Virus record (IMG/VR): IMGVR_UViG_3300010163_000009
Location: 43,198 to 107,197 of that record
DNA length: 64,000 nt
Direction: 5' to 3' (one strand)
Origin: a virus
Lineage: Duplodnaviria > Caudoviricetes
Under the pieces are notes generated by a model. It had not been told where the DNA came from and searched no databases. It saw nothing but the letters and a program-made list of their open reading frames with translations. This document shows positions 1,409 through 62,839 of this stretch, one piece after another; the stretch's first letter is position 1; every line of letters starts with the position of its first letter. The translations under genes and the position numbers were made by a program.

Positions 1409-1442
1409 TTTCACCCTACCATATTTGCAATCCTCTATTCTT
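1409..1442 (+). promoter_or_regulatory. Putative phage late promoter (TTTCACCC-N18-CTATTCTT)
   Basis: CACCC 1412-1416, 18-nt spacer, CTATTCTT 1435-1442. The same motif recurs before other late operons. Confidence 0.75.
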
Positions 1443-1461
1443 GGAAAAAGAGTAATCAATC

Positions 1462-2733
1462 ATGGATGCAGAAAATTTGAAATATGTAGTTGGTAGGGCT
1501 GAGGAAGGTCGGCCAGCTATCATTCGTTTTTTTTCAGCTGTAGATGAGTATAGTGTTCGTTGTTTTAACGATGAATTTTTGTGGTTGCAAGACTATGTAA
1601 AGCCTTCAAAGATTATCGTAATGATTAACTCTGAAGGAGGCTCTGTGCTGTACGGAATGAGCACGTTCTCAGTCATCCGCTCTTGTCCGATTGAAGTTGA
1701 TTGTGTGATAGAAGGCATTGCTGCTTCAATGGCCAGTGTTATTTGGGCTGCTGGTGACAATCTTTATATGCACGATTATTCATTGCTGATGATTCACAAT
1801 CCTTTTAACACAAACGTGGAAGATGCTGACCCATCAGTGAAGCAAACTGTTGAAGCATTCCGATCACAACTGGAAACTATCTACACTAAACGGTTTGGAC
1901 TTGCCAAAGACAAGGTTGCAGAAATTATGAACGGCGAAGGCGATGCCGACGGCACGTTCTTTAGCGCTAAGGACGCTGTTAAGGCAGGGTTCCTCCCTTC
2001 GGAGAATGTTATCAAGACCTCTAAAAAGGTACGAGACAAAGTGAAAAGCGAAATGATAGGCATTGATAACGCAGCAGATATGCGCAACATCATGTCAGCC
2101 GTATCTGCCGAGGTCGATGAAAATAAACTTATCGAAGCTATTTGTGCTATTCGTAATCAGACAGATAATAATTATTCACCAATCCAAGAAAACAAAATGG
2201 AAAATAACGAAAAAAACAATTTCGACGCCATTTCAGCACAACTTGGACTCGCTAAGGACACTCAGGCCGCAGCGATTGAAGCTCGCATTGCTGAGTTGAT
2301 CAATGCAGAAGCAGCACTCAAGGAAACTCAGAGTGAGCTCACTGCTACGAAGATCAAACTTGAAGGCAAGGAAGCCGAACTCGCTAACGCCAACAGCGAA
2401 ATTACCGAGACTAAGGCAGCGCTTCAGGCGTACAAGGATGCAGAGCAAGCAGCTCGCACAGCCGAGATTGAAGCCGTTATCGACGATGCAATCAAGGCAG
2501 GTAAAATTGAGGCTTCTGCAAAAGATGCTTGGACTAAGATGGCTGAGTCTGACTTCGCCACCGTAAAGAGCACTCTTGCATCAATCCAAGCACGTGAAAA
2601 AATCACAGAGAAAATCGCTGAAGACCCGGAAAACGTGGCCAAGATTGAGGACACCATGAAAGATGTGGATGCCAAAATGAAGGAGGCCATCAAGGAACAT
2701 CTGGGTGAGGTGAAATTCGAGAAATTTGACTAA
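1462..2733 (+). CDS. ClpP-like prohead protease fused to coiled-coil scaffold
   Basis: INSEGGSV, IAASMASVI (catalytic Ser) and MIHNP (His); Ala/Glu/Lys-rich helical C-terminus; directly upstream of the capsid gene. Confidence 0.9.
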   Translation: MDAENLKYVVGRAEEGRPAIIRFFSAVDEYSVRCFNDEFLWLQDYVKPSKIIVMINSEGGSVLYGMSTFSVIRSCPIEVDCVIEGIAASMASVIWAAGDNLYMHDYSLLMIHNPFNTNVEDADPSVKQTVEAFRSQLETIYTKRFGLAKDKVAEIMNGEGDADGTFFSAKDAVKAGFLPSENVIKTSKKVRDKVKSEMIGIDNAADMRNIMSAVSAEVDENKLIEAICAIRNQTDNNYSPIQENKMENNEKNNFDAISAQLGLAKDTQAAAIEARIAELINAEAALKETQSELTATKIKLEGKEAELANANSEITETKAALQAYKDAEQAARTAEIEAVIDDAIKAGKIEASAKDAWTKMAESDFATVKSTLASIQAREKITEKIAEDPENVAKIEDTMKDVDAKMKEAIKEHLGEVKFEKFD

Positions 2734-2748
2734 TCCCAATTAACCAAC

Positions 2749-3840
2749 ATGGCAACAATCAATTTTGCCGGTAACACTTACGCGGGTGAGGTTCTTGAAG
2801 ACCTCCTTGTTTATACCGCGAAGGGAAATGAGACCTATGAGGCTGGTCTTGTTCATGTGAAGCCCGGTATTCAGAAACGTTACGTTTTGCCTCACATTCA
2901 GCTGGGTTCGATTATTCAGGATAACAAGCCCACGCCTACTTCTACTGAAGGAGCTGCCAATGATGACACTGGCTTTAACCAGTATAAACTCTCTGAGCGT
3001 TATCTCGACCCTCAGGACTTTATGGTCTATTTGGAGTTCAATCCCCGTGACTTTGAGGAGTATTGGCGTTTCGCTCAGCCGGAAGGTCCGCTGGTTTTCC
3101 GTGAACTGGCTCCTGAGGTTCAGAAGACCATGCTTCGTCTGCTTCTGGACAAGAAAGATCAGTATATCAACGACTGCATCTGGTGTGGTAAGAAGGGTGG
3201 CGTAGATGCCAACATCGCCGGCCCTGCCAATGGCACTCAGCTTGGTGGTGCGACTTCTGCCGGTTTGATGAAGTATTTTGACGGTGCTCTCGCTCGTGTA
3301 CTCGCCAATTTCAAAGCCCAGGCGGCTGTATCTGCCGGTACTGCAACTGATGCAGACAAGAACGAGGTAGCTTCCGGTAAAGTTATCCTCGCCGGTTCAA
3401 CAGAGTTCAAGGATGGTAAGGACGTTGAAGACGCTCTCTATGCTATCTGGATGAAAACTCCGGCACATGTCCGTAAATCCAAGAAGCTCAAGTTCGTCAT
3501 GGGCTGGGATGTATGGGATACGTATGACCAGTACCTGACAACTCAGAAAGAGTTCAAGTATGTTGAGAACCCGGATGTCAATAAGCGCACTTTCAAGGGA
3601 AAGCAGATTGTCGTTATCGATGGCCTGCCTGAGTCAACAATCTTCTTTGGCAAGTTCTCGACCGATCAGGATTCTTGCCTCTGGATGGCAATTGACTACA
3701 GCACCGATGAAGAGAGCGTAAAGGTTGAGCGTCTTCAGGCCAATTCGGAGATGTATTTCTTCCAGATGCGAATGAAGATGGACATCAATCTGGTTCGTCC
3801 CGGTGAACTGGTAGTGTGGACACCCTACACAAACGCATAA
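2749..3840 (+). CDS. Major capsid protein
   Basis: 363 aa after protease/scaffold; strongly biased codon usage; followed by a terminator. Confidence 0.8.
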   Translation: MATINFAGNTYAGEVLEDLLVYTAKGNETYEAGLVHVKPGIQKRYVLPHIQLGSIIQDNKPTPTSTEGAANDDTGFNQYKLSERYLDPQDFMVYLEFNPRDFEEYWRFAQPEGPLVFRELAPEVQKTMLRLLLDKKDQYINDCIWCGKKGGVDANIAGPANGTQLGGATSAGLMKYFDGALARVLANFKAQAAVSAGTATDADKNEVASGKVILAGSTEFKDGKDVEDALYAIWMKTPAHVRKSKKLKFVMGWDVWDTYDQYLTTQKEFKYVENPDVNKRTFKGKQIVVIDGLPESTIFFGKFSTDQDSCLWMAIDYSTDEESVKVERLQANSEMYFFQMRMKMDINLVRPGELVVWTPYTNA

Positions 3841-3863
3841 CCCGATAACAGCAAGTATCATCG

Positions 3864-3903
3864 GAAAGAGGAGTGGAGACAGCGAAACTCCGCTCCTCTT
3901 TTC
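3864..3903 (+). terminator. Rho-independent terminator after capsid gene
   Basis: AAAGAGGAGTGGAG / CTCCGCTCCTCTTT stem (one G-U pair) ending in a T-run. Confidence 0.75.
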
Positions 3904-3925
3904 AATTTAAGACCACTTTATAACT

Positions 3926-4312
3926 ATGGCTAAGAAGAAAACCACAGAAACGGCTGAAGCAACTGCACCTGAAGTGACAACGCTTGAGACTCCTGTACAA
4001 GAAGTATCTGAAGCATCGACAGCCGAAGCCAATCAGCCTGAACCTACAGAGGTTAAGACTGAAACAGAGACCAATGTTGAGACCGAGGCAACAAGCCATG
4101 AAGAGGAAACTGCTACAGAACAAGCTCCCGCAGAAGTTGCTCCAGAACCTGTTACTCCGGTAATTCCGGATAAGGCATTGGCATATCTCCGTCGTCACCC
4201 TGAAGACAAGGAAGTGTACATCGACAAGTTCGGCGGTGTATTTCCGGTAAGCATCCCCAAAGTGTTTGTGACGGATGCCGTCCTCTACCAAAATCCATTT
4301 TACAAACAATAA
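3926..4312 (+). CDS. Hypothetical virion-associated protein with acidic low-complexity N-terminus
   Basis: 128 aa: E/T/A/P-rich N-terminus and a compact ~40-aa C-terminal domain; lies between capsid and sheath. Confidence 0.6.
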   Translation: MAKKKTTETAEATAPEVTTLETPVQEVSEASTAEANQPEPTEVKTETETNVETEATSHEEETATEQAPAEVAPEPVTPVIPDKALAYLRRHPEDKEVYIDKFGGVFPVSIPKVFVTDAVLYQNPFYKQ

Positions 4313-4324
4313 AACTATCATACA

Positions 4325-5659
4325 ATGGCATTAGGAAATGTTTTTATGAGAGACACGGATGGCAATATTCCAGTATTGCGATCCAACACTATTGAAAAAG
4401 TGTGTGGTCTCATTTTCGACATCTCTGGTCAGACTAACTTCTGGACTGAAGGCGGTGGAGCCAACATTGCTGACACTTGGAAGGACAAGATAATAGAGCT
4501 TAATAGCCTCAATGATGCTATTGAAGCTGGTATTACTGCTTATACCGGAGAAGTTGACAGCGAGACCAGTGTAAGCACCGATGTCTTGGCAGGTATTCCT
4601 TATTATCACATTCGCCAGTTCTTTAATATGGCTGGCGGTAGTGGTCGTCTGTTTGTCATGTTCGCAGATTGTTCTAATGATTGGAACGCAATTATTGAAA
4701 TGCAGCGTGCAGCCAGTGGGTCGATTTTCCAAATTGGCGTATGGACAGAACAGCAACTTTGGAATAAGCCTGATGAGAGTGCTAACGCTTATTCTATCGG
4801 TCTTGTAGCCGATATTAACCGTGCAGCAGTTGAGCTTGCTGATGAGTATTTTGCTCCGGCATCGATCCTTCTCTGTGCTAATACTTCCAAGGTAAAGGTA
4901 GGTACTGCAACAACCAATCAGGTTGCAATCAGTCAGATACCTTCGTGTGTAGTTGATGCCCGTTATGTTACGGTGCTTTTGTCTCAGTCAATGGAAGAGG
5001 ATGTTCGACGTATGCAGGCTTCTCTCGCATCGACAACCCCTGTTGGCGTTTTGGGTCTTGCCCTTGGAACCCTTACACAAGCCGGTGTCGGTGAGTCTAT
5101 CGGTTGGGTTCGTCAGTTTGATCTTGTGAATTATGTTCCGGCAATCGAAATGGGATTTGGTGACTCTACTGTTGTCGAAGGTCTTATCACCAATGGACTT
5201 AGCTACTCTGCATTGAGCAAGGCTCAACTTAATGCGTTGGAGGAAGCTGGTTATGTGTTTGTCCGCTCTTTTGAGGGGCTGGAAGGACATACTTACTTTG
5301 CTAACGACCACACTTGCTCTGCTGGAGACTTCTGTACCATTTCACGTAACAGAACAATCAACAAGTCCCGTCGTCTCATTCGTATTGCGTTGCTTCCTTA
5401 TGTGAACTCGCCAATTAAAGTTGATCCCTCTAATGGCAATCTGTCTTCCGCTCAGGTAACTGTTTTCGAGAATTTGCTCAAAGACATCCTGGATGAGATG
5501 GAAAGCGCAGAGGAAATCAGCGGAACATCTTTTATAACTGTTCCTGCTGAACAGAATATTCTCGTCACCAAAAAGTTGACTCTCTCGTATGGTATCGTTC
5601 CGATGGGCTGTGCCGAGTCTATCGAAGTCACGGAAGGTCTCTACGTTAGTCAGCAGTAA
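4325..5659 (+). CDS. Contractile tail sheath protein
   Basis: 444 aa; GYVF, YFANDHTC, NRTINK and IVPMG sheath-type C-terminal motifs; precedes the tube gene. Confidence 0.85.
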   Translation: MALGNVFMRDTDGNIPVLRSNTIEKVCGLIFDISGQTNFWTEGGGANIADTWKDKIIELNSLNDAIEAGITAYTGEVDSETSVSTDVLAGIPYYHIRQFFNMAGGSGRLFVMFADCSNDWNAIIEMQRAASGSIFQIGVWTEQQLWNKPDESANAYSIGLVADINRAAVELADEYFAPASILLCANTSKVKVGTATTNQVAISQIPSCVVDARYVTVLLSQSMEEDVRRMQASLASTTPVGVLGLALGTLTQAGVGESIGWVRQFDLVNYVPAIEMGFGDSTVVEGLITNGLSYSALSKAQLNALEEAGYVFVRSFEGLEGHTYFANDHTCSAGDFCTISRNRTINKSRRLIRIALLPYVNSPIKVDPSNGNLSSAQVTVFENLLKDILDEMESAEEISGTSFITVPAEQNILVTKKLTLSYGIVPMGCAESIEVTEGLYVSQQ

Positions 5660-5677
5660 TAAAAATCACATACGACA

Positions 5678-6127
5678 ATGATTATCAATAATGTGGCCTA
5701 TTCGTGGGCAATGGTTCAGCTGACTTCTTTGGCACTCACAGGGTCAGCAAACCCGAATCCTATCATTCTTCAGGGTGTGAATGCTATCAAGTGGAACAGG
5801 AAGAAGAAGGTGGAGACTAACTATGGTCTTGGTGGTGAGCCGGTAAATCGTGGTTTTGGTAACACTGAATACACAGCTCAAATCACGATGGATTACAACA
5901 CTCAGGTTCAGCTTCGAGCACTCAAAGGTTCTTTGATGGCTATTGGTGAATTTGACTTGGTAATTTCGTTCGCAAATGAGTTTAATTCTGAAGACTTCTC
6001 AACAGAGACTGTTACATTGAAGGGTTGTCTCTTTAACGAAGACGGTATGGAAGTTTCTCAGGATGACACCAACATCACCAAGGAGTTCGAGCTTAATCCT
6101 TTCAAGATTGAACTGAGTATTAAATAA
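5678..6127 (+). CDS. Tail tube protein
   Basis: 149 aa after the sheath; NNVAYSW and YGLGGEPVNRGFGN motifs. Confidence 0.85.
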   Translation: MIINNVAYSWAMVQLTSLALTGSANPNPIILQGVNAIKWNRKKKVETNYGLGGEPVNRGFGNTEYTAQITMDYNTQVQLRALKGSLMAIGEFDLVISFANEFNSEDFSTETVTLKGCLFNEDGMEVSQDDTNITKEFELNPFKIELSIK

Positions 6128-6157
6128 TTTCTTCCATAGGATTTATTAGAGTGAATG

Positions 6158-6196
6158 GATGCGGCACTGGTATTATTCTGGTGTCGCATTTTATTT
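6158..6196 (+). terminator. Putative terminator after tail tube gene
   Basis: GATGCGGCACTGG / CTGGTGTCGCATT stem with G-U pairs, followed by TTATTT. Confidence 0.6.
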
Positions 6197-6201
6197 GAGG
6201 A

Positions 6202-6236
6202 TTTTCACCCACGTAAACAATGGATGTTCTATTCTT
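6202..6236 (+). promoter_or_regulatory. Putative phage late promoter
   Basis: CACCC 6206-6210, N18, CTATTCTT 6229-6236. Confidence 0.75.
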
Positions 6237-6269
6237 TATTGAATATCAATTTTAATCACAATTAAAATT

Positions 6270-6665
6270 ATGGAAGAAAAAGAAACCCTTGAACTTCAGG
6301 CAATCGAAGAAATCGATCCTAAGCTTCGTGCAGCCGTTGAGAAGAAGGTTGCAGACTTGAAAGCAAATAACCCAAAGGCAAAAATTTTCCCGCTCATGGT
6401 GGATGGTGATCCTGATGACGAGAAAGAAGTGTATATCGGCTATTTCACACAGCCATCGTTTATCACTTTCTCCAAGTACATGACTTTCGCTCAGAAAGAT
6501 CAAGTATCTGCTATGCGCCAGCTCGCCCGCGACTGTTTCCTTGATGGAGACCGTGAACTCATTGACGACGATTCTCTGTTCCTTTTCGGTCTTATGGGGC
6601 AGTTAAACAATATAATCCAGATGCGCGGCGGTCGTGTTATAAATTTATCGAAGCCTGGGAAGTAA
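6270..6665 (+). CDS. Tail assembly chaperone (gpG-like)
   Basis: 131 aa between tube and tape measure, with a slippery site near its 3' end. Confidence 0.8.
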   Translation: MEEKETLELQAIEEIDPKLRAAVEKKVADLKANNPKAKIFPLMVDGDPDDEKEVYIGYFTQPSFITFSKYMTFAQKDQVSAMRQLARDCFLDGDRELIDDDSLFLFGLMGQLNNIIQMRGGRVINLSKPGK

Positions 6666-6832
6666 GAGAGGGCGATTATTTTCGTCAAAAAATAATTCTC
6701 TTACGACATTACTTTCCAGGCATCAATATCGATGACCTTGACGAAGAAGAATTTGCCAGACTTGTCTGTGACGCAGAATGGATGCACAGCCAAATGGTTA
6801 TCACAAGACATGCAAATGCTTTAGGATTATAA
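6641..6832 (+). CDS. -1 frameshift extension of tail chaperone (gpGT-like C-terminus)
   Basis: In-frame A-AAT-TTA heptamer at 6641-6647. The -1 frame is open for 63 codons (KFIEAWEVREGDYFRQKIILLRHYFPG...GL*) with no early ATG. Not in the ORF track. Confidence 0.8.
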   Translation, partial: KFIEAWEVREGDYFRQKIILLRHYFPGINIDDLDEEEFARLVCDAEWMHSQMVITRHANALGL

Positions 6833-6850
6833 TGCGATAACTCGTTGAAA

Positions 6851-6890
6851 AGCCCCGTTGTAAATCTTGTACAACGGGGCTAATCTTTTC
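6851..6890 (+). terminator. Hairpin/terminator before tape measure gene
   Basis: Perfect 12-bp stem AGCCCCGTTGTA / TACAACGGGGCT. Confidence 0.7.
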
Positions 6891-6919
6891 CCCATGCCAT
6901 TGCTTCTATCTCTATTCTT
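6886..6919 (+). promoter_or_regulatory. Putative phage late promoter
   Basis: TTTTCCCC ending 6893, N18, CTATTCTT 6912-6919. Confidence 0.7.
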
Positions 6920-6939
6920 TGTAAAAGACATATTTAATT

Positions 6940-9900
6940 ATGGCCGGACAAACATATCAAGTAAACTATATAGTCAATGTTGATGCTGCTAATGCACAAT
7001 CTGCGATAAATTCGTTTAAGCGTGCGGTTGCCTCAATGGATAAAGCTACGAAACCTATTATCGACTTACAGAATAAAGTTCGTGGCCTCGTAGAGACTAT
7101 GAGTGCGCTTAACAGAGGAAAATATTCTGTTAAGATAGATACTCGACCTGCCACTCAAAAGATAGGGAAACTGATTCGTGCTTTGCAGATGGCTAAGGCC
7201 GAAGTGCAGCAACTAAATGCTATGGGGGTAACTTTGGGAGGTGCAGGAACCAAAAGGAAAACCACATCTCGTACAACTGCTGCTTCTGTTGGCAGCTCTG
7301 CATCTCGCACACGAACAACACCTTCCAGTTCATCTCGCACAGCAACGTCTTCAACAAGACGTTACGTTTCCCCAATAATGAAGCATCCCACTAATCTCGG
7401 ATATAAACTTTGGGGTCCAACTCCGCTGCCTAATAACGGAGGCATGGCTATTGATATGCTTAAAGGTATGGGGATTGCTTACGGGCTTGCTGGTGCTGGA
7501 ATGATGGTGTCAAATGTTGTTAATCAAGCTGCTGAGTACGACAACTTGATGAAGACAGTTGAAAATATTCTGAAGTCCCATGATACTGAAGAAGATTTTG
7601 CAGGCAGATTTGCCCAGATGACTCAAACGGTTCGTAATGTCGGCATGAAAACGAAATTTACAGTAGTAGAGGTTGCTGATGCCGCACGTTTCCTTGCTAT
7701 GGCCGGTTTGAATGTAAATGCAATCCAACAAGCAATCAGTCCTATTGCCGATATAGCTTTGGTTGGAGATACTGAACTTGGTAAAACCGCTGATTTGGTC
7801 ACTAATATTATGACCGCATATAACATTGCGCCTAACCAAATGCGTAATACAGCAGATATTATGACCAATACATTTACTATGTCAAATACTACTTTGACCG
7901 AAATCGCTGAAGCTTATAAATATGCTGCATCGTTGCTTTCTGCTGGTAAAGTTCCGTTTGAAGAAGCTACGGCTGCTATTGGTGTATTGGGTGATGCCGG
8001 TATCAAAGGTTCACAGGCTGGTACGACAATGCGTACTATTATGGCAAACATTGCAAACCCGACTAAGAAGCAAAGGGAAGCATGGGATGCGATAGGCGTT
8101 AGCCGTATTGATAAAAACGGAAAACGGAAAAGCCTCCTTCAGATATTTCAGGAACTACATGACAAAAATCTTGATGTTGATGCGTATTACAATATATTTC
8201 ATAAAACCGCAGCTTCTGGAGCTGTAGCTCTTGCTGCACACGCAGATAAATGGGAAACTGTTTATCTTGAAAATTTCTTGTCTGGCGGCATGACACGTCG
8301 TTTGGCAGAAGAAAAACAAAATACTTTTAAAGGCTTGGTTGCACAGCTTGAATCTGTTTTTACCGATCAAGGAGTGACAGCGTTTAATGGAGTGCAGGGA
8401 ATATTGCGTGGTTGGATGAAATCGTCAATCAATTGGATGGATCCTAATAAAAACCCTGATGCACAAAAAGTATTCAAAGAGGTTGCCAATAGTTTGATAG
8501 AGTTTATACAAGTTCTTATCGATGCTTCTAAATGGTTTGTTTGGTTTTTTGATAAATTCGGTAGAATAGTGAAAACATGGGCCAAATTTCAGTTAATGAT
8601 TTGGCCTGTAGTAAAAGCTGTTACTGCTTTTAGAAGTGCGTTCCTTGGTCTTTTGGGATTAAGAAAGGTTAGTAGCGTACTTATAGGTTTCTCCAGCATC
8701 TTTGGCAATCTCAACAAAAAGCTTCTCGTTTTAGGAACTACGTTAAAGCAAGGTGGGTGGTTTAAGCAAAAGATAGGTGGTAGCATAGCAACTTTTCTTG
8801 GTAACACAGTTCCTGTAGCACCTCCGGGAAATACGTCTGGTGTCACACAAGTATCTCCATTTGGCTTTACAACTGGCATGGCTGGGTTTGCTCCATTGTC
8901 ATATAAACAGTACATGAAAGCAGCTAAAGGTTTGGACTTATCCAGACCTCATGCTTCAACCAGTGGCTATTACCTGAACAATATAGACAATTTCGGTCGT
9001 GAGGCAGAGGTTGCTGCATGGAACTCTGGAGTGTATGCTAATCGTCAGGCTGAGGATAAAGCCGCATTAAATCGATACAAGCAAAACCAAAAGACATTCA
9101 ATAAGCGTGTTCGTAACATGCAAATAAAGAATGGTCTTGGTGGTTTGGGTAAAATGGGGCTTGGCACAGCCGGTATGATGTTGGGTATGCACCAAATGAC
9201 TAAAGAAAATGCAAATGGTTGGGATGTTGCTTCTGGTGGACTCTTTGCTGCGGCAGGAATGGCTGCAATGGTTGGTGGTCCGGTTGGATGGATAGCTGCT
9301 GCTGGTTTGGCTCTTGGCGCATTGGGTTCTTCTTTGATGAGCTTCAACCAAAATCTTAATGCACTTTCTGACTTTGTTAATAGTTTCAGTAGAAGCCATC
9401 AACTTCTTGATGGAGCTTTACTTAATGGTAATACTCGTACAGAGCGTTATCTTGAATTTATATGGCGTAAGAACTACGATATAAATGACCTTATTCAACG
9501 TCGTATTGAGTTGATGAAGGAACTTCTTGGTATTGAAACACCAAATGCTACTACTACAAAAGATGTTGGCAATGAAGTGTATAAAACCATGTATGAGAAG
9601 TTTTACGCAGCTGACTCATTATGGGGGAGTTCTCCTGCCGCATCACGTGCCGCAGAACTTTTTAATAAATATGGTAAAGAGTTTGGTCTATCTATTGATA
9701 AACGTACAGAGACGTATTTGACAGGATATGATAGATATGGTAGACCTATGTATAACTCTCGTACTTATTGGGGTTATAAAGACGCTGAAGGAAACATTAT
9801 AAAGTTCAATAATCCGGATGGAACTTCTGATGCAAATGATGCTGTAATGTATGACGTTGCCGCTGCAATGGAAATGTTGCACGGACAGTATCGTTCTAAG

Positions 9901-11175: not shown

Positions 11176-11178
11176 TAT

Positions 11179-12294: not shown

Positions 12295-12304
12295 TTAGTA
12301 TAGT

Positions 12305-13786: not shown

Positions 13787-13795
13787 AAAATAACT

Positions 13796-14770: not shown

Positions 14771-14772
14771 TT

Positions 14773-19133: not shown

Positions 19134-19137
19134 CAAT

Positions 19138-19529: not shown

Positions 19530-19540
19530 TAAATACGAGT

Positions 19541-42170: not shown

Positions 42171-42189
42171 ATAACAACGCACTCTAACC

Positions 42190-42225
42190 GAAATGCTCGT
42201 CCATACTTAATTGGATGAGCATTTC
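42190..42225 (+). terminator. Hairpin after SSB gene
   Basis: GAAATGCTCGTCCA / TGGATGAGCATTTC stem (one G-U pair); weak T-tail. Confidence 0.55.
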
Positions 42226-42244
42226 TCCTAAAGCATTATTGATT

Positions 42245-43285: not shown

Positions 43286-43287
43286 GT

Positions 43288-46084: not shown

Positions 46085-46086
46085 TC

Positions 46087-46970: not shown

Positions 46971-47511
46971 GATTGCAATCAAACTCATACATCCAGGCTA
47001 TCGATTTCCACAAGGAGGGGAACCGACAAGAATCATGCGTACAGCCCTTCAGAGAATAGAGAAAAAACATGGTGTGCTTACCGCACAAAGAATAATTGAT
47101 TATGTGGTATGCTCGTCCTATGCTTTCAAAGACAGAGGCTCTAATTGGAAATTGAATCAAGTGTTTGGTCCCAAATCTATTGAACGTTTCAATTCAGACA
47201 AAGGCAGGGTATATTTTGAAAATAAATGGCTGGAGTCTGAAGGGCTCAGTCGTTCATCATTGCTCAATATGATTATTGACCGCAGTGAACACCCAAAAGC
47301 AAAGTTCATTTTCATCCCCAGTGAAGAAGGTACAAAACAACGGCTTCTTAATAGAAATGTAGGATTTGTCGTGTGCCAGACATCTACCCTTGGGTGGTCT
47401 CCATTGTCAACAGCATGTTCAGAGTGCGTATTCGTGGAAAAATGTAAAACAGAAACTCAAAAAAAATATCCGGAAATATTCCGATTAAGAATAGAATATG
47501 TCAGCAAGTAA
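46924..47511 (+). CDS. Hypothetical replication-associated protein (Cys cluster near C-terminus)
   Basis: 195 aa just before the helicase; CSEC..C motif. Confidence 0.55.
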   Translation: MVNEYLIKQTLKMFHEIAIKLIHPGYRFPQGGEPTRIMRTALQRIEKKHGVLTAQRIIDYVVCSSYAFKDRGSNWKLNQVFGPKSIERFNSDKGRVYFENKWLESEGLSRSSLLNMIIDRSEHPKAKFIFIPSEEGTKQRLLNRNVGFVVCQTSTLGWSPLSTACSECVFVEKCKTETQKKYPEIFRLRIEYVSK

Positions 47512-48844: not shown

Positions 48845-48859
48845 TATACGGAGGTGTTT

Positions 48860-51623: not shown

Positions 51624-51625
51624 TT

Positions 51626-55115: not shown

Positions 55116-55627
55116 AACCATTAATCATTTGTATAGTAGGAGCATCCGGAAGTGGAAAAACTACCGCTTCCATGATTCTCCAGAAACAATTTGGCTGGAA
55201 TGCCATTGTGTCATATATCACACGCCCTATGCGTAAGGGAGAAATAAATGGGAAAGATCATTGGTTTGTCAAGAAAGACCAAATGCCACCTCTAAATAGA
55301 ATGTGCGCCTATACCCAATTTGGAGGCTACGAATACTGGACGGAGTGGAACCAGTTCCAGACACTCTTTCCCAGTATTTATGTAATTGACGAGAAAGGTC
55401 TTGTAAACCTGCAAAGCAAAATCTGCTCTTTCCCCTTCGATTTGGTTACAATCCAAATCAAACGTGATAATCTTCAGGAGATTGACGATAAACGCAGAGA
55501 ACGAGACAATGAACGAATATGTGTTCCCGATGAGCAGTATGACTACATCGTCGAAAATAATGGTTCAATGGAAGAATTTCGCACCTCCCTTTATTTAACC
55601 GCACAATGTATCATCCAAAAACAATAA
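55112..55627 (+). CDS. Guanylate-kinase-like nucleotide kinase
   Basis: GASGSGKT and S.ITRPMRKGE.NGKDHWFV motifs. Confidence 0.85.
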   Translation: MKPLIICIVGASGSGKTTASMILQKQFGWNAIVSYITRPMRKGEINGKDHWFVKKDQMPPLNRMCAYTQFGGYEYWTEWNQFQTLFPSIYVIDEKGLVNLQSKICSFPFDLVTIQIKRDNLQEIDDKRRERDNERICVPDEQYDYIVENNGSMEEFRTSLYLTAQCIIQKQ

Positions 55628-55631
55628 AAAT

Positions 55632-56408
55632 ATGGCAGCACCTAAAGAAGAATCCCCGGTAATTGTAGCATTTACTATTGACTTTGAGACCGGTGGGCTC
55701 AAATGTCAAACATCAGCTTGCACGCAGATTGCAATACACGCTACCAGACTCGATACATTCGAGAAAATTGGTTCATACCAAAGTTATATCGCTCCTTATA
55801 ACCGTAAGGAGATAGCCGGAGCAACAAAAAAGCGTAAAACACTGAAATCAAAATATGAAGACGAGTCCATTTCTATGGATTATGAGACAAGAGCATTGGA
55901 ATATTCCGCTATCACCATGGATATGCTGGAATCCTATGGAAAACCCATTGAAATTGTGGCGCAGGAGGTGCTTCAGTTTATCATCGACAATACGCCTAAG
56001 TGCCCGAAAAACATGAAACCGTTCTTAATCGGCCAGCATATCGCCTTTGATGAAGGCTTCCTCTGTCAGATGATGGAGTATGCCGGTCTGATGAATGAAC
56101 TAAAAAAGGTTCTTCGTGGGGATGAGGATTTTTATGGTAATTGGCATCCGCTTTATGTGGACACGATAGTTCTTGGACAACTTGCGTTGTGTCATTTACC
56201 GGATGTCAATTCATACAAGCTGGAGATCATGTGCGAAAATCTTGGGATTGAATTAGATGATGCCCATGATGCAGATGCGGACGTGTCAGCAACCACCAAC
56301 GTTGCCGCAGTCCTCACCCAGCGTATGAGAAGTATAGGCGGCGAGTATGATGGTGAAAATCTCGCGATTTCAAAAGCGGAAAAGACTCGTAAACATTTTA
56401 AAATATAA
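55632..56408 (+). CDS. DEDDh 3'-5' exonuclease (DnaQ/epsilon-like)
   Basis: DFETGG, H..FD and HDADADV motifs. Confidence 0.88.
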   Translation: MAAPKEESPVIVAFTIDFETGGLKCQTSACTQIAIHATRLDTFEKIGSYQSYIAPYNRKEIAGATKKRKTLKSKYEDESISMDYETRALEYSAITMDMLESYGKPIEIVAQEVLQFIIDNTPKCPKNMKPFLIGQHIAFDEGFLCQMMEYAGLMNELKKVLRGDEDFYGNWHPLYVDTIVLGQLALCHLPDVNSYKLEIMCENLGIELDDAHDADADVSATTNVAAVLTQRMRSIGGEYDGENLAISKAEKTRKHFKI

Positions 56409-56414
56409 TAAACT

Positions 56415-56687
56415 ATGTTAGAGCAGAAGCAAGAAGGAACTTATTCCCATATAGATGAACCTACTGTACAATTCAAGGCAATTTCAGACAGAATAGTTCG
56501 CGAAGTTATCAATGCCGATACAAAACAGGTGTTAGTCCACATTTCCGGTTATGACCTTCAAATTAACTTTAATATGCAATATTTGAAGTCAGTTGAGGAT
56601 GTTGAAGCCGCTTGTAGTGGTATTGCACAATTATTCCGTGACTTTATCATGGATAAATTACTGGAGGGTAATAAACCATCAAAGTAA
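56415..56687 (+). CDS. Hypothetical protein
   Basis: 90-aa ORF at the end of the replication operon. Confidence 0.55.
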   Translation: MLEQKQEGTYSHIDEPTVQFKAISDRIVREVINADTKQVLVHISGYDLQINFNMQYLKSVEDVEAACSGIAQLFRDFIMDKLLEGNKPSK

Positions 56688-56754
56688 AAAACGACTATTC
56701 GTTAATGACAGAGGATTAATTATAAATAGTTCGCATTAACGAATTAGCGTTAAA

Positions 56755-57234
56755 ATGGAAAATAAGAATAAACTTACAGATCAAGAGATACTTTTCTGTG
56801 ACCTCTATGCAAATGGAGAAGCACCTTATGGGGGCAATGCTGCAAGATGTTACGAAGAAGTATTCAATGACAAATCAAAGCGAGCAAAAAGTCTTGCTAC
56901 TCGTATGCTGGCCCGTCCTGAGATTCAGGAATATCTGGAATCTCTTGACGGGCTGCCGTATGAGGAGGCCAAGTATATGAAAACATTCCTCCGAGAAAAT
57001 CTTATGAGTATCATTCAGGAATGTTCAAGTGCGAAATACAGAGACAGGAAAGGTATTTTGCAATCTCCGGCAGCACTCAGAAGTGTAGCGGTAAACGCAT
57101 CCAAGGCTCTTATGGACCTTTATCCAGTCAAAGAAGCACATGTGAGTAAAATCAATATTGACGGTGCCGGTGAAGGTGGCATTACTTTTAATGTCATCAT
57201 GCCCGATCAGACTAAAAACGAAAAAGAAGACTAA
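56755..57234 (+). CDS. Terminase small subunit
   Basis: LTDQEILFCDLY...GNAA...A.RML.RPEIQEYL HTH motif. Confidence 0.75.
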   Translation: MENKNKLTDQEILFCDLYANGEAPYGGNAARCYEEVFNDKSKRAKSLATRMLARPEIQEYLESLDGLPYEEAKYMKTFLRENLMSIIQECSSAKYRDRKGILQSPAALRSVAVNASKALMDLYPVKEAHVSKINIDGAGEGGITFNVIMPDQTKNEKED

Positions 57235-57243
57235 AATTTCCCT

Positions 57244-57855
57244 ATGAACGAATTACAGAATTTGGATAAGCTCACGAAAGCGAGCATTGAATTGAGTGAA
57301 GCAGCCAGCAATTATGGTGCACTGAAAGTTATCTTCGGCGTGTTCCTTTTAGTTTTTCTGTTATTGGTGCTGCTGTTCGTATGGCAGTTGCTCTCAACGC
57401 AGGGTAAATTGGCTACAATAGAAAAGGCGAGCAACAAAAGTATGGAATACTTTGCATCGTTGAGTGACCATACAATCGGCAAGGAAGAAGCGAAGATGAT
57501 AGTACGCGAGAGTTTCAATCGGAGCGAGGCCCTGATAAAATACTATATCCTTAAAATCAGGTTGGAGAACCATACGGCTGACAAGGCATTTACGGAAGAT
57601 AAGATACGATCGCTCGTTGACAATGACTTTTCATCGCGTAGAGTATTCCTTTCCCGCTTTGCCTGCCACGGACATCCTATCAGCTTCACGGCAACTATTG
57701 ACGATAATTCTGCCATCACAAAACTGATGCAAGACTGGGTGTATAAGGATGAGAAGAATTTCACAGTCAGTCTTATGGCACAAGCCGTCAGCTTGTATTA
57801 TGACGGTATTAAAATTAATGCGCAAGGGAAAATAGATGATATTTCAGTGGAATAA
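57244..57855 (+). CDS. Single-TM membrane protein, putative holin
   Basis: One long hydrophobic helix (VIFGVFLLVFLLLVLLFVW) plus a soluble C-domain; lysis context. Confidence 0.5.
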   Translation: MNELQNLDKLTKASIELSEAASNYGALKVIFGVFLLVFLLLVLLFVWQLLSTQGKLATIEKASNKSMEYFASLSDHTIGKEEAKMIVRESFNRSEALIKYYILKIRLENHTADKAFTEDKIRSLVDNDFSSRRVFLSRFACHGHPISFTATIDDNSAITKLMQDWVYKDEKNFTVSLMAQAVSLYYDGIKINAQGKIDDISVE

Positions 57856-57857
57856 AA

Positions 57858-58058
57858 ATGAAACCTGGGGATAAAATCAGAATCCTTCCATCTTTCTCTT
57901 TGTCAGAGTTAAAATTGGAAGCACTCGTTGGATTGACTGCGACAATCGTTGAAGTAAACGGAGATTTTAATGGCTTTAGAGGTTGCTGGGTAATGCTTTC
58001 AGGAAAATACCTTGGAGAGCGAGAGTGGTATATCCCCTATAATTCAATAGGAGTATGA
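57858..58058 (+). CDS. Small hypothetical protein (KOW/SH3-like)
   Basis: KPGDKIRI...G....IVEV motif. Confidence 0.5.
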   Translation: MKPGDKIRILPSFSLSELKLEALVGLTATIVEVNGDFNGFRGCWVMLSGKYLGEREWYIPYNSIGV

Positions 58059-58573
58059 GATTTAACTCGTTTTTAACCGGATGTGTTATAACTTTAGTAA
58101 TAGTGGCTTGTATCGCTTGGTTTTATCATGAACGCCAAAAATATGTAATGGCATCTTCAGAAAAAACAACTGAGACTGTGTATGATACAATACAAGTTTT
58201 TATAGACACGCCCATACTGAGAGATAGTATGGTTATTCGGTATGCTACGGTCACTTTACCGGTGTATGACACAATCAAGATACATCATGCTGACACGCTT
58301 TTTTCTAACAGTGTATCTGTCACGTTACCGATTACTCAGAAAGTCTATAAGGACTCGACTTACGAGGCTTGGGTAAGCGGGTATATGCCGGTTTTGGATA
58401 GCATCAGGATATTTCAACCGATGACAACTATCACAAATACCATATCCAATACAGAGATTAGGTATAGGCAGAAACGTTGGGGGTTGGGAGTACAAGTTGG
58501 CATAGGAGTCATCTCAGGTAAAATAGATCCTTATGTTGGCATTGGTGTGTCATACAATATTTTTTCTTGGTAA
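58055..58573 (+). CDS. Putative spanin-like lysis protein
   Basis: N-terminal TM helix, Thr/Val-rich linker, C-terminal amphipathic beta hairpin ending in Trp; next to the endolysin. Confidence 0.5.
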   Translation: MRFNSFLTGCVITLVIVACIAWFYHERQKYVMASSEKTTETVYDTIQVFIDTPILRDSMVIRYATVTLPVYDTIKIHHADTLFSNSVSVTLPITQKVYKDSTYEAWVSGYMPVLDSIRIFQPMTTITNTISNTEIRYRQKRWGLGVQVGIGVISGKIDPYVGIGVSYNIFSW

Positions 58574-58608
58574 AACTCACCCAATACTATTTTATCAAAG
58601 CTATTCTT
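58574..58608 (+). promoter_or_regulatory. Putative phage late promoter
   Basis: CACCC 58578-58582, N18, CTATTCTT 58601-58608. Confidence 0.75.
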
Positions 58609-58631
58609 TAATGAAGTAAAAATTCAAGCAC

Positions 58632-59264
58632 ATGAAAATATTGATTGATAATGGCCACGGCATAAACACTTCTGGTAAGTGTTCGCCTGATAAACAATAT
58701 AAAGAGTACGCCCATGCACGGAAATTGGCTGCTGCCATTGTTAACGGCTTGGTCAATAAAGGCTATGATGCAGAGTTGCTTGTTCCTGAAACTACGGACG
58801 TGCCACTTAAAGAGCGTTGCCTAAGAGTTAATAGCTGGTGCGATAAATTAGGCACTAAAAACGTCATTATGGTTTCTGTCCATTCCAATGCCGGAGGGAA
58901 TGGTCAATGGGTCAATGCCCGAGGCTGGAGCGTTTGGACAAGTCCGGGAAAGACAAAAGCAGATGATTTAGCAACGTGCATTTATAATGCGGCGGACATT
59001 TGCTTGGCAGATTATAAGCAGTTGTTCACTGCTGAAGATACGGCCCGTCACCAAAAAGCCATGCGAGCCGATTGGAGTGACGGAGACCCTGATTATGAAG
59101 CCAACTTTTATATTTTGGTACATACCAAATGCCCTGCGGTATTGACCGAGAATTTGTTCCACGACAATAAAACGGATTTGGCATTTCTCACATCAGATGC
59201 CGGTGTAACGGCGATTGTCAACGCTCATGTTCAGGGTATAATGCAATATGTAAAATCACTCTAA
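58632..59264 (+). CDS. Endolysin, N-acetylmuramoyl-L-alanine amidase (Amidase_3)
   Basis: IDNGHG, E, SVHSNA and PAVLTEN motifs. Confidence 0.93.
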   Translation: MKILIDNGHGINTSGKCSPDKQYKEYAHARKLAAAIVNGLVNKGYDAELLVPETTDVPLKERCLRVNSWCDKLGTKNVIMVSVHSNAGGNGQWVNARGWSVWTSPGKTKADDLATCIYNAADICLADYKQLFTAEDTARHQKAMRADWSDGDPDYEANFYILVHTKCPAVLTENLFHDNKTDLAFLTSDAGVTAIVNAHVQGIMQYVKSL

Positions 59265-59276
59265 AATAGATAAAAT

Positions 59277-59609
59277 ATGGAATTACACATCATCGACCGA
59301 ATCTCTATTCCGTCAATTCTCCCATCGGAGAACTCGTTCATGGATTATAATCTGAAACGTTCAATCATCAAGAAGGTTGGCATCAATAAGAATGATGTCG
59401 AGAAGTACAAAATCAAAGAGGACACGGAGAACAGACGTACCACATGGGACATAAACATTGACCGCGAAAATCCTCTTGTGGTTGATTTCACAGCGCAGGA
59501 ACTGGCTTATTTGAAAAGCGCCTGTGAGAAGCTCTCAGACACACCAGCCCCGGACTATCTTTGGGACACAGTAGAAAAAATATACGAAGCCGCACAAGTA
59601 ACGGCATAG
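59277..59609 (+). CDS. Hypothetical protein
   Basis: 110-aa ORF after the endolysin. Confidence 0.6.
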   Translation: MELHIIDRISIPSILPSENSFMDYNLKRSIIKKVGINKNDVEKYKIKEDTENRRTTWDINIDRENPLVVDFTAQELAYLKSACEKLSDTPAPDYLWDTVEKIYEAAQVTA

Positions 59610-59643
59610 TTTTTCTTGATTCCTGATATATCCATAAACGCCA

Positions 59644-59675
59644 GAGGCGTATTCAATGAGAATTGGATACGCCTC
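59644..59675 (+). terminator. Hairpin after lysis operon
   Basis: GAGGCGTATTCAAT / ATTGGATACGCCTC stem; poor T-tail. Confidence 0.5.
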
Positions 59676-59700
59676 ACTTATATGGGTAAAGCCGATAATT

Positions 59701-59734
59701 TTTAACTCCTTGAAGATTGTACTTTTCTATTCTT
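59701..59734 (+). promoter_or_regulatory. Putative phage late promoter (variant)
   Basis: AACTCC, then CTATTCTT 59727-59734 (CC at 17-nt spacing). Confidence 0.55.
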
Positions 59735-59751
59735 CATAAAAGATATGATTT

Positions 59752-60057
59752 ATGAAGAAAGAAATAGACAACAAGACCCGTGGAAAAGCCATCGGATTCC
59801 TGATTTGGTTTAGGAATCAATACAAGGTCTGGACTAACGATACCTATTACAAGATAGCCGAAAAGTATGGACAGTGCAATTACGGAACGTGCCGCAACCT
59901 TCTGTTTGAACTTGTGGATGCAGGTTACATTACGGTATGGAATGACGGAATCCACAAACGCAGGTTTTATCTGAATCAGGAGAAGTACAACGAATTAGTT
60001 AACCCTTTTATTTTCAGGAAGCATGATACCCGGATTGAAGGAACGCGAGCCGATTGA
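59752..60057 (+). CDS. Small winged-helix-like DNA-binding protein
   Basis: IAEKYG.C.YGT.RNLL.ELVDAGYI...RRFY pattern. Confidence 0.6.
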   Translation: MKKEIDNKTRGKAIGFLIWFRNQYKVWTNDTYYKIAEKYGQCNYGTCRNLLFELVDAGYITVWNDGIHKRRFYLNQEKYNELVNPFIFRKHDTRIEGTRAD

Positions 60058-61237
60058 AATTCCTTTCGGTAATAGTTGCAAACTACTTGTACATATTCCT
60101 ACCTCATTCTATACGATGAATGAGGCTGATGAAATTTGCAGAAATCTTAGGAAACAAGGCTATCATTGTGGAGTGATATATGAGTATTGCTATCGTGGTA
60201 ATGGTAAAAAGTATATAGGGCAAACGATGTGTCCCAAGCACCGCCATTTAACACATCTTCATTCAGCACAAAATTGCAAAAGCAATAGTGCTTGGAGTCA
60301 GGCACTCAAAAAATACGGAATTACGTGGTTTGATTACCAAATACTTGAGATTGTTTCAGACCTTGACGAGCAACACTTCCATGAACTATTAGATGAGCGA
60401 GAAAAATATTTCATTGAGCTACACCTCTCTTCTGTCAGGATACATGGGTATAATGTTTCCACTGGTGGGACAAAGCGTCCGACTAAATCTACAGTTGAAA
60501 AACCGGTGGATATGTTTGATGATGAAGGAAACTATATAAAGACATTTCCATCATTGTCTAAAGCGAGTGCTGCATTTGGATTTTCCGGTCCGACGATTCG
60601 TCAGGTTTGTAATCATGTTCACCATATTGCTGGAGGGTACTTATGGGCTTGGCATGGCGAACCTCCTGTAATTCCACCATCTAAAAATAAAATATATGCC
60701 TACGATGAAGATGGACGATATTTGGCTGAATACGAAAATATGTACGACGCATCTAAGAAGTTAGGATGCACTTATGCCAACATATACAACGCTTTTAGGG
60801 ACAAATATCGTCTTTGTCATGGAATGTATTGGCGTGACTATAAAGCCGGCCAAATTCCTTTGTCTGATTTTCCTAAAGCTGTCTATGCGTATGATTGCAA
60901 TGGAAAATTTGTAAAAGGGTTTATCAATCTGACTAAAGCTAAAGAATTTATAGGAGATGCACAATCCAGCAATATAAGCCATGCGATAATTAACAAGACT
61001 GCACATAAAGGATATTTATGGCGTACTGAATATTATGAAAGAATTGATCCTACAGATGGTCGTTTCATAAATAAAGTCCCAGTGATTGCCATCTTCCCGG
61101 ATGGAAGCCAAAAACGATATGAAATGATTAAGGATGCAGCAGCTGATAACTGCGTAGCCACATCAAGCGTTCAACGCTCCATTAAACATGCGACCAAGAC
61201 AGCAACAGGTTTTCGGTTTATTCGAGCGAATGATTAA
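60023..61237 (+). mobile_element. Free-standing GIY-YIG homing endonuclease with NUMOD1-type repeats
   Basis: GVIY...YIGQT and ERE..FI...GYN motifs; four KPV..FD.EG.YI..F.S...A-type repeats. Confidence 0.88.
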
Positions 61238-61249
61238 ATTGGATAAAAC

Positions 61250-62839
61250 ATGCAAGTAAAAGGGTTAAAACATCCAGGCAATATAACAATCAATTTCACA
61301 CCATCAAAAAGGCAGTTGGAATTGTGGAAACTTCTGCAACCTAACTGTTGTCCTCACTGTGGTAGTGAGATTGAAATAAAATTGTCATCGTATGACCAAA
61401 AAGGATTACCGGTTTACGCTCCTGTATGTAAAAAATGCGGGTCTGATGAACTTCCTCAGATAATCTTAGGGGGTGGAGCCGGTGGTGGCGGGAAAAGTTA
61501 CGTTGGTAGTTGCTGGGTAATTATCAACTGTTTGCGATTCCCAGAATTGAAAGCTGTGGTTGCTCGTAAAACCATTAAAGCCCTGAAAGGGTCAACCTTC
61601 AACACCATCAAACTCGTGCTTAGAACATGGGGACTGGAGGAAGGTGTAAACTATAAAATCAACAATTTGGATGGTATAGTCACATTCTACAATGGCTCAA
61701 CAATCTCATTGATAGAATTGGAAGACTTGCCTTCCGATGTGGAGTTTGAACGTCTTGGTTCAAATGAATGGTCTATCGGTTTTGTTGATGAATGTAGTCA
61801 AATTTCCGAAAAAGCTGTTGAAGTGTTGTTTTCTCGATTACGATGGAATATCGCTGATACGTTTATCTATCCCCGTTTGCTTCTTACCACTAACCCTTGC
61901 ATGAATTGGGTTCGCTCAAGATTTGTGCAAGACGAAGAAGGGAATAAGGTTAAATGTTCAAAGCATGATGCTTATGTTCAGTTTACGGTTTACGATAATC
62001 CTAACAAACAATTTGTTGCAACATATCGTGCCTCTTTGGATAAAATCAGTGATGTTGTTACAAGAAACCGCATCTTATACGGGAACTGGGATTTCATTGC
62101 TTCTAATGAAGCGGCTGCATATTGGAATTTTGATGGAAACAAACACTTGATTACGGAGCTTCGAGAAAAGGCATACGATCCGCTAAAGCCTCTCATACTT
62201 AGTTTTGACTTTAATGTTGCGCCTTATATGAGTTGCCTCATTGCACAAATGGATTACGAAAACCATAAGGTGTATGTAATTGAAGAGGTTGTCGGTCGTC
62301 CTGAAGCCAAAGAGAACAACACTCCGAAATTTGCTGAGAAAATTAAAAGTAAATTGCTTGAAATAGGACATATTGGAGGCATAGTTGTTACAGGAGACCC
62401 GGCAGGAATGGCACGTTCAACCACAACGGAAGAAGGCGTTAACAATTATTCTATTATTATGTCCGTGCTTGATATTCCTCAACTTCGCCCTAAAAAGAAG
62501 CTTCTCAGCAAACAGCCAGCTCAAAAGACCCGTCTTGAATTTGTCAATTCTGTATTAGCCGGTAAAGAAGGTTGGGATATTCTTATTGACCTCCGTTGTC
62601 GTAAATTAACTGAGGACCTTATTAACCAGCGCAAGGAAATGGACGGCTCGAAATCAAAGGCAAAAGTCATGGATTCCAAGCTCGGTATAAAATATGAGAA
62701 ATACGGCCATTTTTCTGACACCTTGGACTATCTGCTGGTACTATTCTTAAATGAACCTTGGAGGAAGTTCAACGCGTCGGGAAGTTCAGGAATAACGACT
62801 TTCAACGGTACGCCAATCTACGGTTCCTTTGAATATTAA
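61250..62839 (+). CDS. Terminase large subunit
   Basis: GGGAGGGKS, FVDE, TTNP, SFDFN, GDPAG and HFSDTLDY motifs. Confidence 0.93.
   Translation: MQVKGLKHPGNITINFTPSKRQLELWKLLQPNCCPHCGSEIEIKLSSYDQKGLPVYAPVCKKCGSDELPQIILGGGAGGGGKSYVGSCWVIINCLRFPELKAVVARKTIKALKGSTFNTIKLVLRTWGLEEGVNYKINNLDGIVTFYNGSTISLIELEDLPSDVEFERLGSNEWSIGFVDECSQISEKAVEVLFSRLRWNIADTFIYPRLLLTTNPCMNWVRSRFVQDEEGNKVKCSKHDAYVQFTVYDNPNKQFVATYRASLDKISDVVTRNRILYGNWDFIASNEAAAYWNFDGNKHLITELREKAYDPLKPLILSFDFNVAPYMSCLIAQMDYENHKVYVIEEVVGRPEAKENNTPKFAEKIKSKLLEIGHIGGIVVTGDPAGMARSTTTEEGVNNYSIIMSVLDIPQLRPKKKLLSKQPAQKTRLEFVNSVLAGKEGWDILIDLRCRKLTEDLINQRKEMDGSKSKAKVMDSKLGIKYEKYGHFSDTLDYLLVLFLNEPWRKFNASGSSGITTFNGTPIYGSFEY
62711..62748 (+). promoter_or_regulatory. 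Putative late promoter inside terL 3' end
   Basis: ACACC 62718-62722, N18, CTATTCTT 62741-62748, about 105 nt before the next gene. Confidence 0.65.

Follow-up and report, generated by a model that had tools for sequence, protein, structure and literature searches.

A predicted late promoter class in Bacteroidales phages and the phage-encoded ECF-type sigma factor that probably reads it

Introduction

To our knowledge, the promoters of gut Bacteroidales phages are essentially uncharted, crAss-like phages aside. Phage-encoded sigma factors that turn on middle or late genes include gp55 of T4 and gp36 of phiEco32. In the Bacillus phage SPO1, middle and late genes are switched on by the sigma factors gp28 and gp33/34 (PMC13401047). 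Here, we describe a recurrent two-part motif with the core CTATTCTT and a gene for a sigma factor of the extracytoplasmic function (ECF) type in the tailed phage of IMG/VR virus record IMGVR_UViG_3300010163_000009. The stretch analyzed, hereafter the window, is 64 kb long and corresponds to bases 43198-107197 of the 107,197-bp record, for which a completeness of 97% is estimated; all positions given below are window positions unless stated otherwise. We put at roughly 0.7 the probability that this phage uses the motif as its late promoter and that the host RNA polymerase reads it together with the phage sigma factor encoded at 46320-46970.

The logic, as far as it can be known here from sequence, would be like that of SPO1, T4, and phiEco32: the host sigma factor serves early genes, including that of the phage sigma factor, which then diverts the host core polymerase to a distinct class of virion and lysis promoters. 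However, the protein has no detectable sequence relation to the sigma factors of these phages, its matches being generic ECF models and PHROG 1740, and a sigma4 domain and a clear -35 box set it apart from T4 gp55. Another difference is the host phylum, as Bacteroidota have unusual primary promoters, with TTTG at -33 and TAnnTTTG at -7. The early and middle operons of the phage appear to use this host type, whereas the late motif has neither TTTG nor TAnnTTTG.

Among ECF sigma factors, which form group 4 of the sigma-70 family, Escherichia coli sigmaE, with its GGAACTT -35 element (PMC1540707), shares with the phage system the two-domain sigma2 and sigma4 architecture, an AAC-type -35 box and an equal spacing between this box, counted from its C, and the -10 region; lysine at the position of sigmaE R171 fits the conserved C. 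In contrast to sigmaE, the phage promoter lacks the upstream GG, leucine replaces the otherwise conserved R176, and in the clade of this phage the box reads ACCC, with arginine at the position of F175. The -10 element is an 8-mer, CTATTCTT (CTACTCTT in the GenBank genome MT835494), unlike the CGT or GTC type of ECF promoters, which lowers the resemblance of the promoter to ECF systems but leaves the classification of the protein intact. The phage protein further differs from ECF sigma factors in seven inserted residues in the turn of its sigma4 helix-turn-helix, in being encoded by a phage without a recognizable anti-sigma factor, and in predicted targets that are virion genes rather than a stress regulon.

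A Two-Part Motif Ahead of Virion, Lysis, and Packaging Genes

The left arm of the record (1-40.9 kb) is read for the most part on the minus strand, while from the portal gene (41.1 kb) to the record end only the plus strand is used, in the order head, tail, diversity-generating retroelement (DGR), baseplate, anaerobic NrdD/NrdG, recombination and replication, and then terS, lysis, and terL. Genes were taken from simple open reading frame (ORF) calls. Among cultured phages, BS-TP1 of Bacteroides (PQ571274.1, 111.7 kb, host B. salyersiae) is the nearest relative; it has about 82% nucleotide identity, a sigma factor that is 86% identical in amino acids, and the motif at orthologous places.

An earlier note on this DNA had counted nine plus-strand copies of CTATTCTT by eye, seven of them with CC exactly 18 nt upstream, and a recount gives the same numbers. 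The plus-strand copies start at 1435, 6229, 6912, 12179, 16309, 28839, 58601, 59727, and 62741. Equal frequency on the minus strand, which the note had named as an argument against a promoter, is not what the window holds, as only a single copy (47494) is found there. The ten copies compare with 3.31 ± 1.85 in shuffled sequences, and none of 100 shuffles reached ten. CC-N18-CTATTCTT is matched seven times, exclusively on the plus strand, where 0.11 matches are expected; the upstream boxes read TTCACCC (at two sites), TTTCCCC, TCACACC, TGAACCC, CTCACCC, and TGACACC, in agreement with the CACCC, AACCC, TCCCC, and ACACC of the note. In full, the motif is TTnA[A/C][A/C]C-N18-CTATTCT[T]-N3-AAAA, followed by an ATG 14-40 nt further downstream: a T-rich stretch leads into A[C/A][C/A]C, the final C lies 19 nt ahead of the core, and an A-run begins three bases past it. 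Six copies in the window are intergenic (1435, 6229, 6912, 28839, 58601, and 59727), with an ATG 17-33 nt downstream, and three lie within ORFs (12179, 16309, and 62741).

The same 8-mer emerges when the whole genome's 41 upstream regions are enumerated without input of the motif from the note: CTATTCTT ranked first, being present in seven regions against 0.24 expected (Poisson p 7e-9). The motif precedes the portal, protease/capsid, tail-chaperone, tape-measure, baseplate, endolysin, and terL operons, and across the upstream regions of the window and the whole genome this class is confined to virion, lysis, and packaging genes. Orthologous regions of this phage, of BS-TP1, and of three relatives from IMG/VR were aligned for the predicted promoters of the portal, protease, chaperone, tape-measure, baseplate, and endolysin genes and of the terL operon. 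Retained in these alignments are the box, the core CTATTCT[T>C,A], and the A-rich stretch at the predicted start; the 18-nt spacer and the surroundings have diverged. Scored with a matrix that covers only the flanks and was trained on three distant genomes, the seven intergenic sites of this phage all reach the 97th percentile of background or higher, and minus-strand and antisense copies score as background. The genes of the window are all on one strand, and chance or codon usage could in principle create such a bias; three of the nine plus-strand copies are indeed within ORFs, and 12179 as well as a variant at 46487 behave as coding sequence. Yet shuffles never reach the observed counts, the enrichment is specific to the few intergenic gaps, and the motif is conserved amid drifting neighbor bases, which leaves this explanation barely conceivable.

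A signal acting in RNA, or a protein site other than a promoter, such as a processing, antitermination, or translational leader element common to the late operons, would account for the short distance (≤40 nt) to the start codons and for the hairpins that precede three sites. The conserved A-rich stretch could aid translation, which in Bacteroidetes is not reliant on Shine-Dalgarno pairing. The hairpins are strong and lie directly upstream of 6229, 6912, and 59727, where the note had reported terminator hairpins ahead of two copies; sites right after terminators, however, need a new start. Moreover, two boxes at a fixed distance with a free spacer form a pattern of DNA recognition, no conserved RNA pairing spans the motif in the alignments of relatives, and processing would not call for an AAC box, placed 18 nt upstream, whose sequence co-varies with a residue of sigma4. 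We therefore regard an RNA-level or non-promoter role as quite improbable.

A Divergent ECF-Type Sigma Factor

The ORF at 46320-46970 on the plus strand encodes 216 residues, with sigma2 at residues 18-101, an acidic disordered linker, and sigma4 at 131-198. Pfam recognizes Sigma70_r2 (residues 33-88) and Sigma70_r4_2 (139-169), so that the architecture consists of regions 2 and 4 only, without region 1.1 or 3. The score against TIGR02937, the NCBIfam model of the ECF superfamily, is narrowly above the cut-off (43.8 versus 42.9 bits), no equivalog model is reached, and PHROG 1740 is also matched. A profile of 14 family members finds SigW, AlgU, SigH, SigE, and sigmaE in the PDB with E-values from 2e-6 to 4e-4. 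The AlphaFold (AF2) model (mean predicted local distance difference test score 74.8) has two helical domains joined by the disordered acidic linker, and its top 30 Foldseek matches are all ECF sigma factors at probability 1.00. By profile and predicted fold, the ORF is thus a divergent ECF-type sigma factor, as the note had proposed.

In a hidden Markov model alignment with E. coli sigmaE, the phage residues K185, R189, and L190 take the positions of R171, F175, and R176, and the recognition helices align residue for residue (TVKSRLFLAR versus TVRSRIFRAR). The insertion in the helix-turn-helix of sigma4, at about residues 170-180, lengthens the turn by seven residues (EY-KGSLKT) relative to solved ECF sigma factors and is conserved in the family. 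Neither of the neighboring ORFs (46087-46356 and 46924-47511) has a match in Pfam, PHROG, or NCBIfam or a named look-alike.

Sigma Factor and Motif in Related Phages

Database searches returned 184 relatives of the sigma factor, down to 55% identity. IMG/VR holds 234 loci, mostly on contigs of about 100 kb, of which 80 were fetched and 14 whole or near-whole records were examined for the motif. Loci of 20 kb centered on the sigma gene contain mainly replication genes and few late promoters, and whole genomes were therefore used. The sigma factor also occurs in about 40 Bacteroidales genomes, on large separate contigs or within chromosomes, from Prevotella, Palleniella, Muribaculaceae, Bacteroides, Tannerellaceae, Dysgonomonas, Alistipes, and Parabacteroides. 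Three sigma-bearing phage contigs (L170, L192, and L201) come from metagenome-assembled genomes (MAGs) labeled Eggerthellaceae, Clostridiales, and Eubacteriales; these labels are probably binning errors, because the host range is otherwise strictly Bacteroidales.

Each of the 15 relatives that were searched whole shows a bias of the 8-mer to the strand of the sigma and late genes, a weak one in the case of G002 (8 versus 6). For the 13 genomes fetched whole or nearly whole, 142 copies are on the late-gene strand and 30 on the other, and for the bipartite form the numbers are 69 and 4, with 0.25-1.05 per genome in shuffles. Where the sigma factor is only 42-46% identical (G006 and G007), CTATTCTT is again the top upstream 8-mer, and in these two genomes and G009 the motif stands ahead of the portal, protease, sheath, chaperone, tape-measure, baseplate, and terS orthologs. 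Orthologous late genes likewise carry it where sigma identity is 42-52%. In MT835494, whose sigma factor is 40% identical, CTATTCTT occurs only twice; CTACTCTT occurs seven times on the late strand and never on the other, with AAACC 17 nt upstream in six of the seven. Two sheath-related phages without the sigma factor, a 42-kb human-gut phage and Flavobacterium phage pippi8-1, have no bipartite motif. In a 2-Mb MAG (G016), a phage contig of 97 kb has five of the 13 matches to C-N18-CTATTCTT.

Co-variation of the -35 Box With the Recognition Helix

In the structure of sigmaE bound to its -35 element, F175 packs on the methyl group carried by the T facing the first A in AAC, R171 makes a bond with the G that faces the C, and R176 reads an upstream G (PMC1540707). 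K185 of the phage protein, at the R171 position, fits the conserved C of the phage box, and L190, in the place of R176, is in keeping with a box that has no G upstream. Most lineages of the sigma family combine an AAC box with phenylalanine at the F175 position, and lineages with a KSRL[F/L/Y] recognition helix have AAC at -21 to -19 relative to the core (A in 30/33, A in 22/33, and C in 31/33). The clade of this phage has arginine (R189) instead and ACCC boxes, with C at -21 in 24 and at -20 in 23 of 30 sites. On the sigma tree, the arginine type forms one clade nested among phenylalanine types, and its basal member, G016, has mixed boxes. A reading of ACCC as AAC shifted by 1-2 nt was considered; the data leave the register unfixed, and we therefore state the co-variation by position relative to the core. 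The change of the core in the MT835494 lineage is independent of the change from phenylalanine to arginine.

It is conceivable that this single change in sigma4, at residue 189, re-aimed the sigma factor from an AAC to a CCC-type -35 box and that the late promoters of the phage followed one after another. The mixed boxes of the basal lineage and the AAAC in the portal promoter of the present phage can be cited for such a stepwise change of promoters, but the proposal is a tentative one, which we would back at somewhat worse than even odds.

How the Switch May Work and What Speaks Against It

From sequence, we infer that the motif marks transcription start sites, that these are used late, and that the phage sigma factor recognizes them. 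Host sigmaA would first start at TAnnTTTG promoters, one of which (40242) lies ahead of the replication operon that contains the sigma gene. As the sigma factor accumulates, its sigma4 domain would bind the box at -22 to -19 relative to the core, which is ACCC in this clade and AAC in most relatives, and sigma2 would bind CTATTCT(T) 18 nt downstream. The predicted start lies about 4-5 nt past the core, in the conserved A-run, so that leaders would be roughly 15 nt long; the operons turned on would be those for the portal, protease/capsid, tail, baseplate, endolysin, and terminase. The C of AAC is at -31 in sigmaE numbering (PMC1540707). If the C of the phage box is set to -31 as well, the core would span -12 to -5 and the start would fall on the conserved A found 12 nt past the first core base (+12), where 88% of distant sites have A. 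The proposal of the earlier note that a phage sigma factor reads a bipartite promoter has in this way gained support in silico, the motif being bipartite, oriented and footprinted, and both traveling and varying with the sigma factor.

Several points weigh against this assignment. The co-variation of the -35 box is one observation and not a statistic, because the change from phenylalanine to arginine is a single event on the sigma tree, and in some promoters (GAACCC, TAACTC) the box can be read in registers 1-2 nt apart. The negative controls are two genomes, one of which has a different host. No anti-sigma factor or cofactor was identified beside the sigma gene by Pfam, PHROG, NCBIfam, and look-alike searches of the neighbors, and literature searches turned up no transcriptome for this phage group, BS-TP1 included. 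Finally, the core CTATTCTT is unlike the usual CGT or GTC type -10 elements of ECF promoters and has TA..-TT in common with TAnnTTTG, the -7 element of the host; a host sigma factor with an activator therefore stays a candidate reader.

According to this alternative, sigmaA or a host ECF sigma factor reads the promoter with the help of a phage activator on the upstream box, and the phage sigma factor controls something else. The TA of CTATTCTT is placed as in TAnnTTTG, the core also ends in TT, and other small candidate DNA-binding proteins are available in the ORF at 59752 and in the helix-turn-helix genes annotated in BS-TP1. However, TAnnTTTG is present at none of the motif sites and is absent within 120 nt upstream of the late genes. 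The box has the sequence, AAC, and the spacing that characterize ECF promoters, box and core both vary along the sigma lineages, the host part of a MAG shows no motif enrichment, and the two phages without the sigma factor lack the motif. A host sigma factor as the reader is therefore unlikely in our view, and recognition by the phage sigma factor is the reading we prefer.

Literature searches on the motif, on regulation in BS-TP1, and on sigma factors in Quimby-, Flanders-, and Gratiaviridae-type phages gave no matching description; judged by them, the late motif and a sigma-driven late switch have not been described in Bacteroidales phages. The paper on BS-TP1 describes the DGR, with the sigma factor and promoters going unmentioned (PMC12694917); the sigma gene is annotated in that paper and in the record, without promoter or regulatory analysis.

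Individual Predicted Late Promoters

The predicted portal promoter, an eighth canonical site, lies 2076 nt before the window start, and its box reads AAAC. The sites described next are all on the plus strand. The first in the window (1411-1449) would serve the operon of a ClpP-like prohead protease and the capsid: ACCC at 1413-1416 and CTATTCTT at 1435-1442 are followed by the A-run and an ATG at 1462. Its boxes are retained and its spacer has diverged in five genomes, the flanks are at the 97th percentile, and the downstream gene is a Clp protease. At 6205-6243, ahead of a tail-chaperone-like ORF (6270-6665), the core is retained as CTATTCT[T/C/A] and the flanks reach the 99th percentile; a hairpin at 6153-6196 (-19.4 kcal/mol, z -5.4) stands immediately before this putative promoter. 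The tape-measure gene (6940-11175, PhageMin_Tail) is preceded by a site at 6888-6926 that is retained in relatives (100th percentile), and the T-run of a 12-pair terminator (6851-6881) overlaps its box. For the baseplate/fiber gene (28866-31307), the core CTATTCT[T/C] and TTTTGA of the site at 28815-28853 are retained and the box region drifts (99th percentile), and for the amidase endolysin (58632-59264, Amidase_3) the site at 58577-58615 is retained in relatives (99th percentile).

The copy before the terL operon, listed by the note as a spacer variant, holds up well. The site at 59703-59741, ahead of ORF 59752 and terL, has the box TTTAACTC one base further from the core, its flanks are at the 100th percentile, relatives have AACCT, AACCG, or CACCC as box, and a hairpin (59644-59675) precedes it. 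Between this predicted promoter and terL lies an ORF of the NUMOD1 / I-HmuI-like homing-endonuclease type (60023-61237), which BS-TP1 does not have at the matching position.

Two copies within ORFs are candidates for internal promoters. At 16285-16323, in a fiber-like ORF (14773-16605) with the next tail gene about 260-300 nt downstream, CTATTCTT (16309) keeps a distance of exactly 293 nt to the ORF end in 11 of the 13 genomes compared, at protein identities down to 28%; the rare Leu codon CTA is retained, and an AAC/ACC box lies upstream. As this fixed position is hard to explain by protein constraint alone, we count the site, on comparative grounds, as a deeply conserved internal promoter. 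The site at 62717-62755, in the last 100 nt of terL and before the Mu gp36-like adaptor gene (62846), is retained 95 nt before the terL end in this phage, BS-TP1, G003, G004, and G014, and absent in G007, G009, G013, and G016. It is a possible but not secure promoter specific to the close clade, and coding constraint is an alternative cause of its conservation.

The variants noted before terS and inside the sigma gene fared less well. Before terS (56671-56751), AAACC-N17-CTATTCGT at 56695 is at the place where distant relatives have a canonical CTATTCTT promoter, which speaks for the variant; however, CTATTCGT is at the same time the left arm of an inverted repeat (56690-56751) between the replication operon and terS, and we regard 56695 as an uncertain, possible promoter. 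The arms of the repeat, TATTCGTTAATG and CATTAACGAAT, pair over 12-15 bp (-17.5 kcal/mol) and are conserved in relatives around a variable loop of 25-35 nt. Because conservation of the arms extends to their sequence, beyond mere pairing, the repeat suggests a protein-binding site, such as a pac-like site or an operator, with a leader hairpin as another possibility. The variant at 46487 (CTATTCTG) was rejected as a promoter, its flanks being at the 43rd percentile of background within conserved coding sequence. The copy at 12179 was likewise rejected; it lacks a box and is missing from G004 and G001.

Host-Type Promoters and Other Elements

Host-type promoters had been noted before the thyX/nrd and the replication operons, and the elements themselves are present: on the plus strand, TACCTTTG (36635-36642) follows a terminator (36576-36612) and precedes the anaerobic NrdD/NrdG operon, and TAATTTTG (40242-40249), with TTTG upstream, precedes the recombination and replication operon. 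The gene names need revision, as the reductase is the anaerobic NrdD, and the ORF called thyX (36704-37426) has no Pfam match and a counterpart annotated as hypothetical in BS-TP1. Further host-type elements serve the minus-strand early arm. A scan for E. coli-type TTGACA/TATAAT promoters yielded little (71 hits versus 49.0 ± 7.3 in shuffles for 1-20000, and 54 versus 52.6 ± 7.7 for 44001-64000), and none of its hits coincides with a late promoter. ORFs are contiguous from 40282 to 56687 without large gaps, the sigma gene included, and no late motif is found ahead of the sigma gene in this genome; the arrangement points to expression of the sigma factor with the early and middle genes from the host-type promoter. 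In the most distant sigma lineage (36% identity; Alistipes MAG contigs L187:9803, L186:2181, and L189:487), AAC-N18-CTATTCTT is present about 200 nt upstream of the sigma gene, which may reflect positive autoregulation, a feature absent from the window.

Within the DGR region, no late motif lies ahead of the avd and reverse transcriptase genes, and the 2184-aa DGR target gene is followed by an 11-pair, G+C-rich hairpin (26103-26127, -22 kcal/mol) without a T-run. In the divergent early region, 15-11 kb before the window start (G000:C1:27905-31700, G000 being our label for this genome and other G-numbers denoting related genomes), GGCACACAT-like 7-9-mers occur in four upstream regions, with GGCACAC present in four against 0.17 expected. 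These repeats may be the operator of a lysogeny or early switch.

Implications

The 216-aa sigma factor is probably sufficient to switch the late operons on, and paired with a promoter of roughly 40 bp it could serve as an orthogonal expression switch in the engineering of Bacteroides, for which the Arg/Phe and T/C variants suggest a route to pairs that do not cross-react. BS-TP1 is in culture, and the prediction is therefore directly testable. For the phages themselves, the motif provides a ready rule for locating late operons. If the sigma factor was indeed re-aimed by the change at residue 189, its clade and the CTACTCTT lineage would supply sigma/promoter pairs for Bacteroidales that are natural and mutually orthogonal, and the family would be a worked example of the co-evolution of a sigma factor and its promoters within a virus.

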